From: Methylococcales bacterium
GTDB taxonomy: Bacteria; Pseudomonadota; Gammaproteobacteria; Methylococcales; Methylomonadaceae
Length of the DNA: 64,000 bases
Direction of reading: 5' to 3'
Assembly: GCA_965247565.1 (NCBI GenBank)
Contig: CBDFHF010000003.1
Location: 196,447 to 260,446 of the forward strand
A model generated the notes under the pieces. That model saw only the letters and a list, made by a program, of their open reading frames with translations. It searched no databases and was not told the DNA's origin. The translations under genes were made by a program, and so were the position numbers. Below, piece after piece: positions 14,514-22,804 of the stretch (positions are counted from its first letter, which is position 1; every line of letters begins with the position of its first letter).

Positions 14514-16601
14514 ATGGCAAAAGAACCCAAAACAGAACCCCTGGAAAAACAACTCTGGAAAGCCGCCGATAAGCTGCGCAAAAACATTGATGCCGCAGAA
14601 TATAAACACATCGTGTTAGGTTTGATTTTTCTCAAATACATTTCAGACTCGTTTGAACAGCACTTCGCCACGTTACAGGCAGGCGAAGGCGAATATGCAG
14701 GCGCCGATCCGGAAGATAAAGATGAATATGCGGCAGAAAACGTGTTCTTTGTGCCGCAAGATGCACGTTGGAGTTATTTGCAATCTAATGCGCGCCAACC
14801 AGACATTGGCAAAATAGCGGATGCAGCAATGGATGCGATTGAAGCAGAAAATGCCTCACTTAAAGGTGTACTCCCCAAAGTATTTGCCCGCGACAATTTA
14901 GACCCCGCAAGCTTAGGTCAGCTCATTGATTTAGTCGGCAATATCGCGCTAGGTGATGCCAAATCGCGCAGCGCCGATGTGCTAGGACATGTATTTGAAT
15001 ACTTCCTCGGTGAGTTTGCTTTGGCCGAAGGCAAACAAGGTGGGCAGTTCTATACGCCGCGCTCAGTGGTGGAGTTGTTGGTCGAGATGCTTGAGCCTTA
15101 CCAAGGCCGTGTCTTCGACCCATGCTGTGGCTCTGGCGGTATGTTTGTGCAATCTGAAAAGTTTGTGGCAGACCACCAAGGCCGTGTGAATGATATTTCG
15201 ATTTACGGGCAAGAGAGCAACCAAACCACATGGCGCTTGGCGAAGATGAACCTTGCCATTCGCGGTATTGAAGCCTCACAGGTCAAATGGAACAACGAAG
15301 GCAGCTTTTTAAACGACGCGCATAAAGATGTAAAAGCCGATTACATCATTGCCAACCCGCCATTCAATGTAAGTGATTGGTCGGGCGAACTACTGCGCAC
15401 CGATGGCCGCTGGCAATATGGCGTACCGCCCGCAGGCAATGCCAACTTTGCATGGCTGCAACACTTTATCTATCACCTTTCCCCCACAGGTCAAGCAGGC
15501 GTGGTGCTGGCTAAAGGCGCACTCACCAGTAAAACCAGTGGGGAGGGAGACATCCGCAAAGCGCTGATTGAGCAAGGCAACGTCATTGATTGCATCGTTA
15601 ACCTGCCAGCCAAGTTATTCCTCAATACGCAAATCCCCGCCGCCTTGTGGTTTATGCGCCGCAACAGAAATACTCCCTCGCCCTTTAAGGGAGAGGGCGG
15701 GGGTGAGGGTAAAAAGCAACAAGCCTTCGCCGACCGCAGTAACGAGATTTTGTTTATTGATGCCCGCAACCTAGGCCACCTCATCAATCGCCGCACCAAA
15801 GAGCTGAGCCATGAGGACATTAAACAAATCACTGACACCTACCATGCTTGGCGCAATGCACCATCACCCCTAGCCCCTCTCCCAAAGGGCGAAGGGAATC
15901 CCCCAGAACCCTCTCCCTCTGGGAGAGGGCAGGGTGAGGGAAGCAGTGAGGGCAATAAACTACCAGAGAAACTGCTTGAAAACGCACGAAAATTACGAAA
16001 AAATCAAACCGATGCTGAAGCTCTACTTTGGAGTTTGTTGCGCAGCCGTCAGCTTAATGATTGTAAATTTCGCCGTCAGCACCCTGTAGAGCCTTATATT
16101 CTCGACTTTTACTGCCATGAAGAAAAGCTAGCGATTGAATTGGATGGCGGACAACACAATACAGAATCTGCCATTGCTAATGACCATAAAAGAACCGAGT
16201 ATCTAAAATCACAAGGTATTACCGTATTACGGTTTTGGAATAATGACGTATTGCAAAATACCGAATCTGTGTTGCAGCAAATATATAGCACCCTCACCCC
16301 AGCCCTCTCCCAAAGGGAGAGGGAGTCAAAAGCAGAACCCTCGCCCTTTGGGAGAGGGCTGGGTGAGGGGAAAGCCTACCAAGACATCCCCGGCTTCTGC
16401 GCATCCGTCAGCCTAGAGCGCGTCAAAGAACTCGATTACGTGCTCACCCCAGGCCGTTATGTTGGCCTACCCGATGATGAAGATGACTTTAACTTTGCCG
16501 AGCGCTTTAACGCCCTAAAAGCAGAATTTGAAGCGCAGTTGGTGGAGGAAGATAAACTGAATAAAGCCATTGCAGAGAACTTGGCGAGGGTGAAGTTGTG
16601 A
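14514..16601 (+). CDS. hsdM: Type I restriction-modification DNA methyltransferase subunit HsdM carrying two in-frame insertions (a solo palindromic repeat, and a DUF559 domain flanked by palindromic repeats)
   Basis: HsdM_N region, N6-adenine MTase motif 'IIANPPFN', typical C-terminal 'LTPGRYVG...' segment; 695 aa versus ~520-540 aa for typical HsdM. The extra residues map to GC-rich repeats and a DUF559 block. Confidence 0.85.
15674..15709. repeat. Solo GC-rich palindromic repeat inside hsdM, translated in frame as '[12 protein letters not shown]'
   Basis: 'tccctcgccctttaagggagagggcgggggtgaggg' is an imperfect inverted repeat. It shares the unit GGGAGAGGGC(N)GGGTGAGGG with the repeats at 15860-15952 and 16282-16362. 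Confidence 0.7.
15859..16372 (+). mobile_element. In-frame insertion in hsdM: DUF559 (Vsr-like PD-(D/E)xK endonuclease) domain (~15957-16293) bracketed by GC-rich palindromic repeat modules (15860-15952 and 16282-16362)
   Basis: DUF559 consensus '[24 protein letters not shown]...[30 protein letters not shown]...[10 protein letters not shown]'. Flanks are nested inverted repeats ('ccctcaccccagccctctcccaaagggagaggg ... ccctcgccctttgggagagggctgggtgagggg') encoding PSP-GRG-GEG peptides. HsdM sequence resumes normally after the insert. Confidence 0.8.
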
Positions 16602-17779
16602 GTGAGTGGAGTTCTTTAAAGCTTGCTGATGCACCATTAGAGATTTTGGATGGTGACAGAGGTAAAAACTATCCATCACAAGATGAGTTTACAGATTTTG
16701 GATATTGCTTATTTTTAAGTACAAAAAATGTTCGATCAATTGGTTTCGATTTTTCAGAGTGCCAATTTATTTCAAAACAGAGAGACGAACTTTTACGTAA
16801 AGGGCGACTTGAGCGCAATGATGTTGTACTCACAACAAGAGGCACAGTTGGTAATTTAGGTTTCTTTAATGAAAAGGTAAATTACGAAAAAATTAGAATA
16901 AATTCAGGCATGGTCATAATAAGACCAGATGCGACAAAACTATTACCAGCTTTTAATTTCTATACTTTTAGAAAATTACAATCAGACTTTTTAACATTCA
17001 CATCAGGCAGTGCTCAACCTCAGTTACCAATTAGAGATTTAAAAGAAATTGAAATCTCAATACCACCACTCGAAGAACAAAAAGCCATCGCCTCAGTTCT
17101 CAGCAGCTTGGATGACAAAATCGACCTGCTCAACCGCCAAAACACCACCCTAGAAAGCATGGCCGAAACGCTGTTTAGACAGTGGTTTGTAGAAGAAGCG
17201 CAGGAGGATTGGGAGGAAGGTAAACTTTCAGATGTGTCCGACAACATAAGGCAATCCGTCCAAGCAAAAGATATTCAGGCAACTACTAAATACATCGGTT
17301 TAGAGCATATTGACCGTCGTAATATTGCACTCAAACAATATGGTGTTGGCGAGGATGTTAGTAGTAACAAGTATGCTTTTGAAAAAAATGATATTTTATT
17401 TGGTAAGTTAAGGCCGTACTTTCATAAAGTATGTTTCTCCCCATTCTCTGGAATATGCTCAACTGACATTTTAGTTATCAGGCCAAAATCCTCCGATTAT
17501 TTTGCATTCTGTTTGTTTGCATACTTTCAGAATGATGTAGTTGAGTATGCTAATTTAGGCTCAGGCGGGACACGAATGCCAAGAACTGATTGGGAAACAC
17601 TTAAACAATACCCAATTTCATTGCCTGACAAAAACACACTTTTGAAATTTAACGATATAGTTTTACCATCAATAAATCAAATTACTGAAAATTTGGTGCA
17701 AATCCAAACCCTAGAAAAACTCCGCGACAACTTGCTCCCTAAGTTGATGAACGGTGAGATAAGGATTAACAATGACTAA
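16598..17779 (+). CDS. hsdS: Type I restriction-modification specificity subunit HsdS (two target-recognition domains)
   Basis: Two TRDs separated by a central conserved region, C-terminal conserved helix '[12 protein letters not shown]'; GTG start overlaps the hsdM stop (GTGA); markedly AT-rich relative to hsdM/hsdR. Confidence 0.85.
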
Positions 17780-17790
17780 TCAAAAAGCTC

Positions 17791-17873
17791 GTAGGTTGGG
17801 CTGAAGAATGAAGCCCAACAAATGTTGCAACATACGCTAAACGTTGGGCTTCCAAAAGTCAGCCCAACCTACA
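17791..17873. repeat. REP/BIME-like palindromic units upstream of the RAYT gene
   Basis: 'gtagg-GTTGGGCT-gaagaatga-AGCCCAAC' and 'GTTGGGCT-tccaaaagtc-AGCCCAAC-ctac': two hairpins sharing the same 8-bp stem, bounded by gtagg/cctac. Confidence 0.7.
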
Positions 17874-17895
17874 AGATGATGAAATTTGGGGGGTA

Positions 17896-18429
17896 ATGGT
17901 TTTGCGTTATCGACGAGCGGATGTGGCAGGCGGCACTTATTTTTTTACGGTGAATTTGGCGGATAGAAAAGTCGATTTGTTAACACGCCATCTTGATGAT
18001 TTGCGCGAGGTGATTAACAAGGTTAAACAGGCGCATCCTTTTGTGATTGAGGCGATGGTGGTGTTGCCCGAACATTTGCATGCGATTTGGCGTTTGCCGC
18101 ACGATGATGTGGATTTTCCTATGCGGTGGAGTTTGATTAAGGCAGGGTTTTCGCGCCGTATGGATAAAACTGAACCTATACGCGCCAGCCGCCAAGCAAA
18201 ACGTGAGCGTGGTATTTGGCAACGCCGCTATTGGGAGCACATCATCAGAGATGAAAACGATTTTGAGCGGCATGTGGATTATATTCATTACAACCCTGTG
18301 AAACATGGGCATGTGCAACGTGTGATTGATTGGCCGTTTTCGACATTTCACCACTATGTGGAGCGAGGGTTTCTGCCATCGGATTGGGGAGATGGCGAGG
18401 TAGATATTTTGACGGGCAGTGAAAGGTAA
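17896..18429 (+). CDS. REP-associated tyrosine transposase (RAYT / TnpA_REP, IS200/IS605 Y1 family)
   Basis: HuH motif 'PEHLHAIW' and catalytic Tyr region 'YIHYNPVKHG'; 177 aa; flanked on both sides by inverted REP units. Confidence 0.85.
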   Translation: MVLRYRRADVAGGTYFFTVNLADRKVDLLTRHLDDLREVINKVKQAHPFVIEAMVVLPEHLHAIWRLPHDDVDFPMRWSLIKAGFSRRMDKTEPIRASRQAKRERGIWQRRYWEHIIRDENDFERHVDYIHYNPVKHGHVQRVIDWPFSTFHHYVERGFLPSDWGDGEVDILTGSER

Positions 18430-18442
18430 TATGTTTGTTCTG

Positions 18443-18519
18443 TAGGTTGGGTAGAGGCACCAAGCTCAACGGATTGATACGGTAAATGTGGGGCTTCCTT
18501 ACGTCAGACCAACCTACGG
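18443..18519. repeat. REP/BIME-like palindromic units downstream of the RAYT gene (degenerate copies of the upstream units)
   Basis: 'gtaggttgggtagagg...' and 'gtggggcttccttacgtcagaccaacctacgg', bounded by gtagg/cctac as on the other side. Confidence 0.65.
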
Positions 18520-18572
18520 ACTAACAGTAATAATGTAGCCTGATCATTAACTGAAACAAAAATAAATCTGAG

Positions 18573-19565
18573 ATGATGGATACCACTAAACAGCAGATTG
18601 TCATTTATCAAACTGAAGATGGTAAAGCGCAAATAGACGTGCAGCTTGAGCAAGAAACTGTGTGGTTGAGCCAAGCACAAATGGTTGACCTTTTTGATAG
18701 AAACAAACGTACTATTTCAGAGCATATTGGCAATATTTTTAAAGAGGGTGAGTTGCTAGAAAATTCAGTTGTCCGGAAATCCCGGACAACTGCTAGTGAC
18801 GGCAAAACATATGAGGTGACTGAATATAACCTAGATGTCGTGATATCAGTAGGTTATCGGGTTAAGTCTCAACGTGGTACGCAGTTTCGCATCTGGGCCA
18901 ATAACGTACTTAAACAGTACTTGGTGCAAGGCTATGCATTAAATGAACGCAAACTCCAAGCTGAGCAAGAAAAGCTGGATGATTTAAAGCGTACGATCGC
19001 TTTGTCATCTCGCCTACTACAAAACCAAGCATTAACACTGCAAGAATCACAATCCATATTGTTGGTGCTTGAAAAATACAGCCACGCACTCACTGTGCTG
19101 GATGATTACGACCATCAACGTTTGATGGTGGTTGGTACCAAGGCGGTGACTCGGCCCAAAATTGATTACCATGAAGCCATGGCGCAAATTCACTTATGGC
19201 GCGAGAAAGAAAAGCTTGGCGGCTTATTTGGTAACGAGAAAGATAATTCGTTTGCAAGTGCGTTAGAAACCATCTATCAAACCTTTGATGGACAAGAGCT
19301 TTACCCGAGCATAGAAGAAAAAGCCGCCAATCTGCTATATTTTATTGTTAAGAACCATGCGTTTAGCGATGGCAATAAGCGGATTGCCGCAGCGATATTT
19401 GTGTGGTTTTTAGAGCGCAATGATCACTTGTATAACGAGCTAGGCGAAAAACGCATTGCAGACAATGCGTTAGTGGCGTTTACCTTACTCATCGCAGAGA
19501 GCAAGCCTGATGAACGTGAGATGATTGTAAAAGTCATCATTAACTTAATTAACGGCAATAACTAA
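18573..19565 (+). CDS. RhuM-family N-terminal domain fused to a Fic/Doc (death-on-curing) domain
   Basis: N-terminus 'IVIYQTEDGKAQIDVQLEQETVWLSQAQMVDLF...ISEHIGNIFKEGEL...NLDVVISVGYRVKSQRGTQFRIWA' (RhuM signature); C-terminal Fic/Doc motif 'HAFSDGNKRIAAA' (HxFx(D/E)GNKR). Confidence 0.8.
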   Translation: MMDTTKQQIVIYQTEDGKAQIDVQLEQETVWLSQAQMVDLFDRNKRTISEHIGNIFKEGELLENSVVRKSRTTASDGKTYEVTEYNLDVVISVGYRVKSQRGTQFRIWANNVLKQYLVQGYALNERKLQAEQEKLDDLKRTIALSSRLLQNQALTLQESQSILLVLEKYSHALTVLDDYDHQRLMVVGTKAVTRPKIDYHEAMAQIHLWREKEKLGGLFGNEKDNSFASALETIYQTFDGQELYPSIEEKAANLLYFIVKNHAFSDGNKRIAAAIFVWFLERNDHLYNELGEKRIADNALVAFTLLIAESKPDEREMIVKVIINLINGNN

Positions 19566-22500
19566 TGGCTAAACTCACAGAATCCGAAATCGAAACCCTA
19601 GCCATTGAGCGTTTGCAAGCGCTTGGGTTTGATTATGTATATGCGCCTGAGATTGCGCCTGATTCTGCTAACCCTGAGCGTGAGAGCTTTGCCGACGTGT
19701 TATTGCTTGGCCGGTTGCGCAAGGCGGTTGCCCGCATTAACTCTGCCCTGCCCGCTGCCGCTTTAGATGAAGCCATCAAAACCATTCAACGGATTAGCTC
19801 ACCCGAGTTGTTAGCCAATAATGAAGCCTTTCACCGTTTGCTGACTGAAGGTGTGAATGTCAGCTATCAGAAAGACGGCAATACCCGTGGTGATTTGGTT
19901 TGGCTGATTGACTTCAACCATGTTGATAATAACGAGTTTATAGTGGCGAATCAGTTCACCATTATTGAAAACAACCAGAACAAGCGACCTGATTTGATTC
20001 TGTTTGTGAACGGCTTGCCGTTGGTGGTGATTGAGCTAAAAAACGCAGTTGATGAAAACGCGACGATTAAATCGGCGTATCAGCAAATCAACACCTATAA
20101 AGCCAGCATCCCCAGTTTGTTTACCTATAACGGCTTTGTGGTGTTATCTGATGGACATGAAGCGAAAGTGGGCAGTATTTCGGCGGGGTATACTCGCTTT
20201 ATGGCCTGGAAAACAGCGGATGGTAAAAGTGAAGCTTCTCGTCTAGTTCCGCAATTAGAAACGCTGATTGACGGCATGTTAAATAAAACCACGCTGATCG
20301 ATTTAATCCGCCATTTTATTGTGTTTGAAAAATCTTCTAAAGAAGACCCTAGCACCAAACAGATTAGCATTAGCACGGTTAAAAAGTTGGCGGCTTATCA
20401 CCAATATTATGCAGTGAATGCGGCGGTCATCTCTACGTTAAGAGCCAGTGCAGAAGTCAGTAGTGTCGCTCAAGCCCCGGCCAGTTATGGTTTGAGTGAT
20501 GTGCGCAGCCAACCTAAAGGCGATCGCAAAGCCGGTGTAGTCTGGCATACCCAAGGCAGTGGTAAATCGCTCAGCATGGTGTTTTATACCGGCAAGATTG
20601 TGTTGGCGTTGGATAATCCCACCATTGTAGTGATTACGGACCGTAACGACTTGGATGATCAATTGTTTGATACTTTTGCCGCTTCCAGCCAACTGTTACG
20701 CCAAGAACCTAAGCAGGTAGAAGATCGGCAGCATCTTAAAAAGTTGTTAAAAGTGGGCTCAGGTGGGGTAATTTTCACCACCATCCAGAAATTTCAACCT
20801 GAGGAAGGTAATGTTTATGAAACTTTATCTGAACGCCAGAATATTGTGGTGATTGCTGATGAAGCCCACCGCACCCAATATGGCTTTAAGGCAAAAACGG
20901 TAGACGATAAAAACGCAGCAGGTGAAGTGATCGGGCAAAAAATTGTCTATGGATTTGCTAAGTACATGCGTGATGCCCTGCCCAATGCCACTTACTTGGG
21001 CTTTACCGGCACACCCATTGAAAGCACTGATGTCAACACGCCTGCAGTGTTTGGTAATTATGTAGATATATATGATATTGCCCAAGCGGTTGAAGATGGT
21101 GCGACAGTACGAATTTATTACGAAAGCCGACTAGCAAAAGTTAACCTGAGCGACGCAGGCAAACAGCTGATTGCTGAATTGGATGAGGAACTGGAGCTTG
21201 AAACTCAGGATGTCGCCTCTCAACCGAAAGATGCCGAAAAAGCCAAAGCCCGCTGGACGCAGGTAGAAGCGTTGATCGGTAGTGAGAAACGTGTGCAAAA
21301 CATTGCACAAGATATAGTGAACCACTTTATGCGGCGCCAGGAAGTCTTTGCTGGAAAAGGCATGGTTGTGAGCATGTCGCGCCGCATTGCTGCCGCGCTG
21401 TACGATGAAATGATCAAGCTAAAGCCCGATTGGCATTCGGATGATTTGAGTCGTGGCACAATTAAGGTGGTGATGACAGCAGCATCAAGCGATGGCCCAC
21501 AACTGATGAAGCATCATACTACCAAGCAACAGCGCCGTACTCTGGCTGAGCGCATGAAAGACCCACAAGACGAACTAAAATTGGTCATTGTGCGAGATAT
21601 GTGGCTGACGGGTTTTGATGCGCCCAGCATGCACACGCTTTATATTGATAAACCCATGCAAGGCCATAATCTGATGCAAGCCATTGCACGCGTAAACCGG
21701 GTTTATGGTGATAAACCGGCAGGATTGGTGGTGGATTATTTAGGTATTGCGGCGGATTTAAAAAAGGCCTTGTCATTTTATTCCGACGCAGGCGGTAAAG
21801 GCGACCCCGCTGAAGCGCAAGAACAAGCGGTCGCTTTGATGCTGGAAAAACTGGAAGTAGTCTCGAATATGTACCACGGCTTTGCCTATGAAAACTACTT
21901 TGAAGCGGATACGTCTAAAAAACTCTCGCTCATTTTGGCGGCTGAAGAACATATCTTGGGCCTGCAAGATGGCAAAAAGCGTTACCTGAATGAAGTGGCG
22001 GCGTTATCACTGGCTTTTGCTATTGCCATCCCGCATGAACAAGCTATGGACGTGAAGGATGAAGTGGCTTTTTTTCAGGCTGTGAAAGCGCGCTTGGCCA
22101 AATTTGACAGCGTTGGCAATGAAAACTCTGATGTGGAAATCGAAACCACCATTCGGCAGGTGATTGACCAAGCTCTGATTTCAGAACAAGTCATTGACGT
22201 GTTTGATGCGGCAGGCATTAAAAAACCGGATATTTCCATTTTAAGCGATGAGTTTTTGCAAGAACTAAAAAATCATGAACATAAAAATATCGCGCTGGAA
22301 GTACTGAAAAAACTGTTAAATGATGAGTTGAGAGTTCGTACTAAAAAAAATCTGGTGCAAAGCCGAAGTTTGATGGAAATGCTGGAAAATGCCATCAAAA
22401 AATATCAAAACAAAATACTGACCGCCGCTGAAATAATGGATGAGCTGATCCGCATCAGTAAAGAAATGGTCGCGTCTGATAACGAAGCCCGAAATATGGG

Positions 22501-22804
22501 CTTGAGTGAATTTGAATATGCGTTTTATACCGCTGTAGCCAATAACGATAGCGCAAAACAGCTCATGCAACATGAGCAACTACGGGCATTGGCTGTGGTA
22601 CTTACCCAAAAAGTGCGCGAAAACGCCACGATTGACTGGACAATTAAGGAAAGTGTAAAAGCTAAATTGAAAGTCATTGTTAAACGCACTTTGCGCCAGT
22701 TCGGTTATCCACCCGATATGCAGTTACTGGCCACTGAAACGGTCCTTAAGCAAGCAGAACTGATTGCCAATGAATTGATCCAACCTACCCGTTCGCTCAG
22801 TTAA
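19565..22804 (+). CDS. hsdR: Type I restriction enzyme R subunit HsdR (SF2 helicase/endonuclease)
   Basis: 1079 aa; N-terminal PD-(D/E)xK nuclease region; helicase motifs (Walker A 'TQGSGKS', DEAH box 'VIADEAHRTQYG'); C-terminal helical domain; ATG overlaps the upstream stop (TAATG). Confidence 0.9.
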   Translation: MAKLTESEIETLAIERLQALGFDYVYAPEIAPDSANPERESFADVLLLGRLRKAVARINSALPAAALDEAIKTIQRISSPELLANNEAFHRLLTEGVNVSYQKDGNTRGDLVWLIDFNHVDNNEFIVANQFTIIENNQNKRPDLILFVNGLPLVVIELKNAVDENATIKSAYQQINTYKASIPSLFTYNGFVVLSDGHEAKVGSISAGYTRFMAWKTADGKSEASRLVPQLETLIDGMLNKTTLIDLIRHFIVFEKSSKEDPSTKQISISTVKKLAAYHQYYAVNAAVISTLRASAEVSSVAQAPASYGLSDVRSQPKGDRKAGVVWHTQGSGKSLSMVFYTGKIVLALDNPTIVVITDRNDLDDQLFDTFAASSQLLRQEPKQVEDRQHLKKLLKVGSGGVIFTTIQKFQPEEGNVYETLSERQNIVVIADEAHRTQYGFKAKTVDDKNAAGEVIGQKIVYGFAKYMRDALPNATYLGFTGTPIESTDVNTPAVFGNYVDIYDIAQAVEDGATVRIYYESRLAKVNLSDAGKQLIAELDEELELETQDVASQPKDAEKAKARWTQVEALIGSEKRVQNIAQDIVNHFMRRQEVFAGKGMVVSMSRRIAAALYDEMIKLKPDWHSDDLSRGTIKVVMTAASSDGPQLMKHHTTKQQRRTLAERMKDPQDELKLVIVRDMWLTGFDAPSMHTLYIDKPMQGHNLMQAIARVNRVYGDKPAGLVVDYLGIAADLKKALSFYSDAGGKGDPAEAQEQAVALMLEKLEVVSNMYHGFAYENYFEADTSKKLSLILAAEEHILGLQDGKKRYLNEVAALSLAFAIAIPHEQAMDVKDEVAFFQAVKARLAKFDSVGNENSDVEIETTIRQVIDQALISEQVIDVFDAAGIKKPDISILSDEFLQELKNHEHKNIALEVLKKLLNDELRVRTKKNLVQSRSLMEMLENAIKKYQNKILTAAEIMDELIRISKEMVASDNEARNMGLSEFEYAFYTAVANNDSAKQLMQHEQLRALAVVLTQKVRENATIDWTIKESVKAKLKVIVKRTLRQFGYPPDMQLLATETVLKQAELIANELIQPTRSLS

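Follow-up and report, generated by a model that had tools for sequence, protein, structure and literature searches.

How does a complete nuclease domain with no start codon of its own come to be read in frame inside the methyltransferase subunit of a Type I restriction-modification (R-M) system? The question is raised by the hsdM gene in a 64-kb stretch of a Methylococcales contig (CBDFHF010000003.1, positions 196,447 to 260,446; the whole stretch is called the window here), whose coding sequence contains a DUF559 (Vsr-like) nuclease domain between GC-rich inverted repeats. Our analysis suggests that the insert is probably one copy of a widespread selfish nuclease cassette bounded by inverted terminal repeats of the BoxC type. 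The detailed mechanism of such a cassette is much less certain.

An intact HsdM with a nuclease inside it

The host gene and the nuclease occupy the following positions (aa, amino acids; nt, nucleotides).

14514 to 16601, forward strand: hsdM open reading frame (ORF), host of the insertions; 695 aa, free of stop codons, with HsdM_N and N6_Mtase domains and intact motifs
15969 to 16295, forward strand: DUF559/Vsr-like PD-(D/E)xK nuclease domain, aa 486-594 of the ORF, assigned by profile match and fold match

In the Pfam profile search of the 695-aa protein, HsdM_N spans aa 10-140 and N6_Mtase aa 153-449 (E 2e-102), and the S-adenosylmethionine (AdoMet) motif DPCCGSGG and the catalytic motif NPPF are both intact. 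These two domains, the NPPF motif and the adjacent hsdS and hsdR identify the protein as a Type I HsdM, and with hsdM, hsdS and hsdR all present the R-M operon is intact. The initial annotation had proposed a 695-aa HsdM carrying an inserted, complete DUF559 domain that lacks its own start codon, and each part of this proposal holds. The ORF runs without a stop from 14514 to 16601. Its DUF559 (PF04480) match at aa 486-594 scores 136.5 bits, above the cut-off of 20.6 (E 4e-40), and takes in positions 2-108 of the 109 in the profile. On reading the sequence, no in-frame ATG, GTG or TTG was found in the stretch that separates the left repeat from the domain, so the nuclease can be produced only as part of HsdM.

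By sequence the insert resembles PDB entry 3HRL (E 8e-27). An AlphaFold2 (AF2) model of the isolated insert, with a predicted local distance difference test (pLDDT) value of 82.5, gave target-normalised template modelling (TM) scores in Foldseek of 0.86 for 3HRL and 0.80 for 3R3P (E 1e-4), and a weaker score of 0.50 for 1VSR, the structure of Vsr. The domain in 3R3P is the catalytic domain of I-Bth0305I, a proven homing endonuclease (PMC3239194), and VsrA, a DUF559 protein, triggers the SOS/DNA-damage response in Caulobacter (PMC12907096). The active-site residues, namely the D of LDF, the E-x-D of IELDG and the H of QH, are present in the window copy and are invariant in 81 of 81 aligned relatives. 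Pairwise ratios of nonsynonymous to synonymous substitution rates (dN/dS) lie between 0.04 and 0.26 for embedded and free-standing DUF559 copies alike, and the ratio for the window copy against that of hsdM allele L001 is 0.09. The nuclease is under purifying selection and is likely to be functional.

When the whole fusion was modelled with AF2, the domain was confidently predicted (pLDDT 78-95), and values fell below 50 at the repeat-encoded linkers on its two sides (aa 455-481 and aa 606-619) and at a second insertion site, site 1 (aa 386-403). The methyltransferase core was poorly modelled (mean pLDDT 66.9) and only the pattern of domain and linker confidence was used, which is what a domain folding on its own between flexible tethers would show. 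Both insertion sites also align to indel-variable loops of the solved HsdM structure 3KHK, which matches the HsdM of an empty allele at E 2e-138.

An intein was ruled out, as no Hint or intein family appears among the Pfam matches and the ORF reads straight through. An intron was likewise ruled out by the continuous ORF and by the lack of an Rfam intron match. The Rfam search returned only sub-threshold, miRNA-like hairpin matches, and no known RNA family fits.

Repeat units at two HsdM loops

The repeats are built from a three-block unit consisting of a hairpin H (CCCTCNCCC, a loop of 3-5 nt, GGGAGAGGG), a spacer of 2-3 nt and a third block T (GGGTGAGGG); the reverse orientation is written T'-H. 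They lie at two loops, which in the HsdM alignments follow LWFMRRxR (site 1) and TYHxWRN (site 2).

15675 to 15709, forward strand: solo H-T unit of the BoxC/TM type at HsdM loop site 1, CCCTCGCCC-TTTAA-GGGAGAGGG-CGG-GGGTGAGGG, encoding 12 aa in frame
15858 to 16375, forward strand: the whole insertion at HsdM loop site 2; in the DNA alignment with the empty allele L003, about 518 nt replace 12 nt (CAAAATGGCGAA)
15861 to 15896, forward strand: outer-left unit, degenerate and in reverse orientation (T'-H), CCATCACCCC-TAG-CCCCTCTCCC-AAA-GGGCGAAGGG
15904 to 15940, forward strand: left terminal repeat of the cassette, H-T, CAGAA-CCCTCTCCC-TCT-GGGAGAGGG-CA-GGGTGAGGG, encoding 12 aa
16291 to 16323, forward strand: right terminal repeat of the cassette, T'-H, CCCTCACCC-CAG-CCCTCTCCC-AAA-GGGAGAGGG, encoding 11 aa; an inverted copy of the left repeat
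16338 to 16369, forward strand: outer-right unit, H-T, CCCTCGCCC-TTT-GGGAGAGGG-CT-GGGTGAGGG, encoding 11 aa; a direct repeat of 15904-15940 (92%)

The nonamer GGGAGAGGG occurs seven times in the window against 0.11 expected, and all seven copies lie between 15689 and 16358 within hsdM. The four copies of GGGTGAGGG fall in the same stretch of hsdM, and the full 20-mer GGGAGAGGGNNGGGTGAGGG is present twice (0.02 expected); none of these counts was reached in any of 100 shuffles (0/100). A pattern scan of the window found four hairpin units, all in the hsdM ORF, and the degenerate fifth at 15861-15896 is also inside it. The GC-rich inverted repeats read as PSP, GRG and GEG that the initial annotation had reported on both sides of the nuclease are real, and its limits for the block, 15859-16372, agree with the 15858-16375 obtained against L003.

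The annotation had not described a third unit, the solo one at 15675-15709 in a second HsdM loop, which lies 150 nt upstream of the cassette insert, is in frame, and is absent from L003. Nor had it noted that the two DUF559 flanks are direct repeats of each other of about 85 nt, each flank being itself a long palindrome. On hairpin folding, the right flank (16291-16323 plus 16338-16369) forms a near-perfect palindrome of 79 nt (-39.6 kcal/mol, z -10.3) and the left flank (15861-15896 plus 15904-15940) a long imperfect one (-24.3 kcal/mol, z -4.2). Terminal inverted repeats are thus present, with 92% identity over 26 nt. The direct repeats of the window copy could have arisen by insertion into the centre of a pre-existing tandem-inverted pair, from a circle junction, or from a tandem-dimer junction.

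Translated in frame, the units read PSP-x-GRG/GEG-x-GEG, giving linkers of Pro, Ser, Gly, Arg and Glu. A stop codon occurs in only one of the three frames of the H-T orientation (TGA in GGGTGAGGG) and in none of the T'-H orientation, leaving five of the six frames open. The units are 63-67% GC, whereas the DUF559 core has 40% GC and the window as a whole 44%. Their codon usage is also unlike that of the rest of the gene: GGG accounts for 7 of 15 Gly codons in the units versus 3 of 40 elsewhere (Fisher p = 0.002), and AGA or AGG for all 4 Arg codons versus 3 of 33 elsewhere.

Empty, solo and cassette alleles

We compared the window HsdM with its 120 closest homologues, mostly from Methylotenera and other methylotroph or Gallionella-type metagenome-assembled genomes (MAGs). 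Homologues without DUF559 are 511-587 aa long and those with it 640-765 aa, and alleles at 90-94% identity lack the DUF559 segment. At site 1, about 43 homologues are empty, about 38 hold repeat units only and at least 16 carry DUF559. At site 2, about 43 are empty, about 23 hold repeat units only and 5 carry a DUF559 of the window type; about 14 others carry a second cassette type whose DUF559 belongs to a different clade. The site 2 states that are most informative at the DNA level are these:

L003: empty, ...TGGCGCAAC / CAAAATGGCGAA / TACCAAGAC...; site 1 is also empty
L084: one H-T unit
L001, L086 and L087: H-T, DUF559, T'-H
Window allele: H-T, DUF559, T'-H, plus one extra unit on each side

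The left terminal repeat at 15904-15940 is kept in L001, L086 and L087, in an arrangement shared with other hosts, and the outer-left unit at 15861-15896 is missing from all three. Solo units are borne by L084 and L085. That of L084 equals the outer-right unit of the window, and it combines the left flank of L001 with the right flank of the window; such mixed flanks are what loss of the ORF through recombination between direct H-T repeats would leave. The solo unit at site 1 of L086 retains 12 nt of cassette interior (AAGCAGTGAGGG). Since empty, solo and cassette alleles are found at exactly the same loops, the insert is a gain/loss polymorphism and not an ancestral domain, a conclusion that the 90-94% identical alleles without it support as well and that agrees with the initial annotation, which described an insert. 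As with a homing endonuclease gene, the nuclease ORF occupies a fixed place in a conserved gene for which relatives have empty alleles.

Several smaller observations concern the same loops. In the second cassette type (for example in L145:319-2271, protein P0074) the hairpins are CCCCC-TGAA-GGGGG and AAATCCCC-TTCA-GGGGATTT (plus AGGGG), read as PQPPEGG ... KSPSGDLGA. At site 1 of L087 (L087:1001-3028) the 3' arm of a unit hairpin is split by an insertion of about 50 nt, and site 1 of L084 (L084:1001-2764) contains units arrayed at intervals of about 50 nt (PSPTRGEGMLNAAAP...); the split arm and the array are signs of nesting and of tandem amplification at the units. Site 2 of P0010, P0019, P0021, P0023 and others contains short in-frame inserts resembling translated REP-type palindromes (LPRHCEEQSDAAIQ; VIPAKAGIHL / IPAQAGIQ; GADCIRP..AHAMRP). 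The site 2 loop seems to collect several repeat families.

Recurrence in other genes and phyla

A scan with conserved DUF559 peptides, limited to one genome per species, returned 567 confirmed relatives, of which the best 80 were kept. These 80 span Proteobacteria, Chloroflexi, Planctomycetes, Cyanobacteria, Kapabacteria, Thermodesulfobacteriota and other phyla, and about 60 of them are embedded in stop-free ORFs of 400-1580 aa. By Pfam, the hosts are MetG (12 loci), MetH (8), HsdM (8), HrpA (6), Eco57I/PglX-like proteins (5), MmeI (3), Type ISP enzymes (2), YgiQ radical-SAM proteins (2), and RecG, ValS, HsdR, a Mur ligase, Ham1/RdgB and DUF1156 (1 each). Protein-database matches add Maf and the C-terminal domain of MetG, and a metagenome scan adds IleS, RecG and EcoEI-type HsdR, the last with a DUF559 that is 79% identical to that of the window. 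The insertions lie in interdomain linkers: between the anticodon-binding and tRNA-binding domains of MetG, between the folate and B12 domains of MetH, and between the two RecA-like domains of HrpA and RecG. Free-standing copies also exist, with their own ATG just past the left unit and with stop codons in the untranslated flank. The idea of a small mobile-looking cassette with palindromic ends, which was first put forward from the hsdM copy alone, is thus strengthened by its recurrence in other host genes and as a gene by itself.

The repeats accompany the nuclease in these other settings. In a survey of 82 DUF559 loci for a GC hairpin within 170 nt on each side, one was present on the left in 75, on the right in 73 and on both sides in 66. 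Under the strict three-block pattern the canonical H-T ... T'-H orientation was found 45 times on the left and 45 on the right, and the opposite orientation alone 6 and 9 times, respectively. The stems vary among lineages yet stay complementary (CCCTCTCCC/GGGAGAGGG, CCCTTCCCC/GGGGAAGGG, CCCTCCCCC/GGGGGAGGG and ACCTCCCCCT/AGGGGGAGGT, as well as C-G-extended stems and 4-nt loops), and the hairpin type follows the DUF559 clade across hosts, as with the 11-bp stem and 4-nt loop in the clade of L028, L037, L061 and L080. What is conserved in the units is nucleotide sequence and pairing, not the peptide. Clusters of DUF559 sequences correspond for the most part to host genes, and several independent lineages occur within a host.

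In 342 kb of flanking DNA, 55 extra solo units were seen within the host genes of cassettes (L013, L020, L058 and others), among them six in the Eco57I-like gene of L013. One free-standing cassette (L036, DATKVG010000036.1) is on a contig labelled as a Bathyarchaeia MAG, which could mean archaeal carriage or a binning contaminant. A search of a plasmid collection yielded short matches to the repeat units and a weak 93-nt match in the DUF559 core, and no related cassette.

Relation to BoxC/TM_ECO repeats and to ycjD

Repeats of the BoxC/PIT/TM kind have been known for about 30 years. Judged by its sequence, the flanking unit in hsdM is this same BoxC/PIT/TM_ECO repeat. The right-hand palindrome of the window matches enterobacterial DNA. 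Every complete E. coli genome searched (5426 of 5426) carries the unit in its E. coli form, with a median of 19 sites each. Holder et al. 2015 (PMC4666352) counted 23 copies of TM_ECO in MG1655, with 'tandem inverted' pairs at five sites, and found the repeat in >260 genomes. They reported that TM_ECO forms an intrastrand triplex and blocks polymerases in vitro, that it is linked to local genomic instability, and that it is 'always located intergenically' and has no association with transposons, phages or plasmids. According to the same authors, mobility genes were looked for close by and not even remnants of transposases or integrases ever turned up; the word 'endonuclease' is absent from the text of that paper (PMC4666352), which also cites the earlier BoxC/triplex work of Bachellier and of Hoyne and Maher.

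The window units at 15675-15709, 15909-15940 and 16338-16369 share with TM_ECO the order CCCTC(T/G)CCC, loop, GGGAGAGGG, 2-3 nt, GGGTGAGGG (Table 1 of PMC4666352). In both, a pyrimidine block of 9-10 nt, the purine complement of that block and a G/T third block are separated by short loops. The 'tandem inverted' pairs correspond to the long palindromes of the window, and the G:A 'mm' variant is found in the window as well. They differ in that the window units lie in frame inside an ORF, as terminal inverted repeats of a nuclease gene, whereas TM_ECO is reported as intergenic. For the window units, folding was computed for hairpins.

E. coli itself offers a point of contact between the repeat and the nuclease. 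TM #9 (1,351,239-1,351,204) lies 168 nt from ycjD (1,351,407-1,351,760), the annotated E. coli DUF559 gene. The ycjD stop codon is in the loop of a degenerate CCCTCTCCC...GCGAGGG hairpin (L089:7030-7840; K-12 NC_000913.3 1,351,030-1,351,840), and downstream there is a duplicate of about 45 nt of the ycjD 3' end, followed by TM_ECO/BoxC unit #9. The number of such adjacencies expected by chance is estimated at about 0.005 (23 units, a window of about 950 nt, a genome of 4.64 Mb). Our searches found no literature that links DUF559 with BoxC-type repeats or that describes in-frame DUF559 cassettes; most subscription journals were beyond reach, so this is an absence of evidence only.

A selfish-cassette model

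As we picture it, the cassette would consist of a gene for a Vsr-like DUF559 nuclease of about 110 aa with ends in the arrangement H-T ... T'-H, where H is a GC hairpin of 9-10 bp and T a G/T block. Copies landing in a surface loop or an interdomain linker would be translated through, thanks to their stop-poor, linker-coding ends, and the nuclease would then remain attached to the host protein, unspliced, as a domain that folds by itself. Because the ends are nearly stop-free and encode Pro/Gly linkers, survival in frame would need no special mechanism, and selection would keep insertions in tolerant loops. The nuclease may recognise or cut the hairpin- or triplex-forming units, or else the empty site, and copying would follow through break repair, with alleles of the same gene serving as homing targets. 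Pre-existing solo units could supply homology for ectopic moves, and recombination between direct H-T units would delete the ORF and leave a solo unit behind. Homing among such alleles would account for the clustering of DUF559 lineages by host gene, and ectopic moves by way of solo units would explain the multiple lineages per host, relatives across hosts (HsdM and EcoEI-type HsdR, 79%) and loops rich in units.

A broader and more doubtful proposal, which we offer tentatively, is that BoxC/PIT/TM repeats in general are the cis-acting ends and the non-autonomous derivatives of a new class of mobile element driven by the DUF559 nuclease. YcjD would then be the E. coli copy, and the class would colonise essential genes in frame by means of its flexible-linker ends, filling the intein niche without splicing.

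Several observations weigh against an actively mobile cassette. Among the site 2 alleles, DUF559 nucleotide identity is 72-93% and hsdM identity 73-92%; by pair, the values are 93% versus 81-91% (window versus L001), 87% versus 81-90%, and 72% versus 73-77%. The identity of DUF559 tracks that of hsdM, being equal or lower in the pairs other than window and L001, which fits a cassette long resident and inherited vertically with its host and gives no clear sign of recent horizontal spread. No unit was found in the remaining 62 kb of the window outside hsdM, so the element is not proliferating in the part of this genome covered here. The allele alignments revealed neither a mobility event nor a cleavage site, and the DNA alignment showed no target-site duplication at the insert junctions, where the flanking direct repeats are the units themselves. 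To our knowledge, a lone PD-(D/E)xK nuclease is not a known transposase. Clustering of DUF559 by host gene fits homing and also ancient single insertions followed by descent, and recurrent insertion in the same linkers could reflect survivorship rather than targeting. A recent invasion, in which the cassette would be much less diverged than its host, was considered and is unsupported beyond the one pair of window and L001. The window cassette thus appears to have stayed in its lineage for a long time under purifying selection, and not to have arrived recently.

The alternative that survives best makes the repeats the active agent. Their triplexes or hairpins would stall replication and provoke recombination, the units would spread through host processes or another enzyme, and DUF559 would be a captured passenger or a guardian that processes the structures, not the driver of mobility. 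The ties of TM units to local instability and their block of polymerases in vitro (PMC4666352) speak for this, as do the arrays and nested units, the 55 further solo units that the host genes contain across 342 kb of flanking DNA, and the great excess of solo units over DUF559 genes (in E. coli, a median of 19 places per genome compared with ycjD, the one annotated DUF559 gene examined). We nevertheless think it rather unlikely, given that the units always enclose the same small nuclease, oriented in one way with respect to them, and that the hairpin type follows the DUF559 clade across hosts, which would be unexpected under random capture.

Somewhat less plausible still is domestication, in which DUF559 has been kept as a useful additional nuclease or repair activity for HsdM and other nucleic-acid enzymes and the repeats are linker-coding remnants. 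The co-divergence of DUF559 with hsdM, the strong purifying selection (dN/dS 0.09, window versus L001), the intact R-M operon and the many hosts that act on DNA or RNA are all compatible with a domesticated domain. However, the cassette also resides in MetH, YgiQ, a Mur ligase and Ham1, and is free-standing with untranslated flanks elsewhere; HsdM alleles of 90-94% identity manage without DUF559; and two unrelated cassette types occupy the same HsdM loop. The units, moreover, are kept as DNA, with covarying stems and atypical codons, and not as peptides. Finally, an artefact of mis-assembly, or a chance mimicry of repeats by GC-rich low-complexity sequence, is very improbable, as no support for it was found, the same architecture recurs in independent assemblies from NCBI, ENA, JGI and Logan, the shuffle controls never reach the observed counts (0/100), and the ORF is uninterrupted with a full-length DUF559 domain.

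If the selfish-cassette model is correct, it would provide a candidate enzyme and an origin for the BoxC/triplex repeats, a widespread family whose spread is unexplained, and would give a function to the very large DUF559 family, E. coli YcjD included, which so far has none assigned. Translation through linker-coding ends would give nuclease genes a third means, besides introns and inteins, of residing in an essential gene, and it would explain hundreds of odd 'fusion' annotations in which MetG, MetH, IleS, HrpA or HsdM contains an internal endonuclease domain. The insertions would also constitute a naturally validated set of insertion-tolerant loops in the host enzymes.

Comparison with known systems

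The components of the proposed cassette (DUF559, BoxC/TM repeats and HsdM) are known, and the concepts have precedents in Rickettsia palindromic elements (RPEs), Vsr-like homing endonucleases, REP/RAYT and ShiLan. What seems to be new in the literature we searched is the combination, a Vsr-like nuclease bounded by BoxC/triplex units and lying unspliced and in frame in essential genes across phyla.

The Vsr-like/EDxHD homing endonucleases (I-Bth0305I, PMC3239194; 'fractured genes', PMC2677866) have the same catalytic fold (TM 0.80 to 3R3P) and likewise lie within a conserved host gene that has empty alleles. The window nuclease stays in the mature host protein, whereas these enzymes are carried by group I introns or lie next to split inteins, so that their removal takes place on the RNA or on the protein. 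The window cassette further differs in having hairpin terminal repeats and in lacking a large N-terminal DNA-binding domain. RPEs and other in-frame miniature inverted-repeat transposable elements (PMC10969869) are short palindromes that lie in frame at tolerated positions of unrelated genes. The RPEs are described as about 150 bp long with only a conserved peptide, and no enzyme gene is mentioned for them (PMC10969869), whereas the window family spans many phyla and has an enzyme-bearing form, with DUF559, beside its solo units.

REP/RAYT (REPIN; PMC2817692, PMC8266576) resembles the cassette in placing an enzyme gene between inverted hairpin copies that are also dispersed as solos. The window enzyme, however, is a PD-(D/E)xK nuclease and not a Y1 (HUH) transposase, and the window repeats have no GTAG motif. 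The HNH insert in the ShiLan phage DNA methylase (PMC11855218) is similarly neither intron nor intein, reads through in frame and is predicted to loop out. There the HNH ORF is out of frame with its own start, whereas the window nuclease is in frame without a start, belongs to another family and has hairpin ends.

The hsdM operon and its neighbours

The other two hsd genes of the operon lie downstream of hsdM.

16598 to 17779, forward strand: hsdS, Methylase_S (E 8e-34)
19565 to 22804, forward strand: hsdR, with HSDR_N, SWI2_SNF2 and T1RH-like_C domains

The hsdS start at 16598 overlaps the hsdM stop codon. The base composition around the operon has nothing distinctive as a signal of horizontal transfer. 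Between hsdS and the RhuM/Fic-domain gene there is a gene for a 177-aa, RAYT-like Y1 transposase of the IS200 type at 17896-18429 (PF01797, E 1e-5), with two inverted GTAGGTTGGGC hairpins to its left and two to its right (17788-18520). The segment 17788-18520 is a REPIN/RAYT module, and its repeat family is unrelated to the hsdM units. We considered this RAYT-like gene, 1.3 kb downstream, as a mobiliser of the hsdM units and ruled it out, as it has GTAG hairpins of its own (GTAGGTTGGGC) that are unrelated to them. The RhuM/Fic-domain gene itself lies at 18573-19565, within the R-M operon between hsdS and hsdR; at the same position, the L001 operon has a RhuM gene together with DUF6978 and DUF1828 genes.

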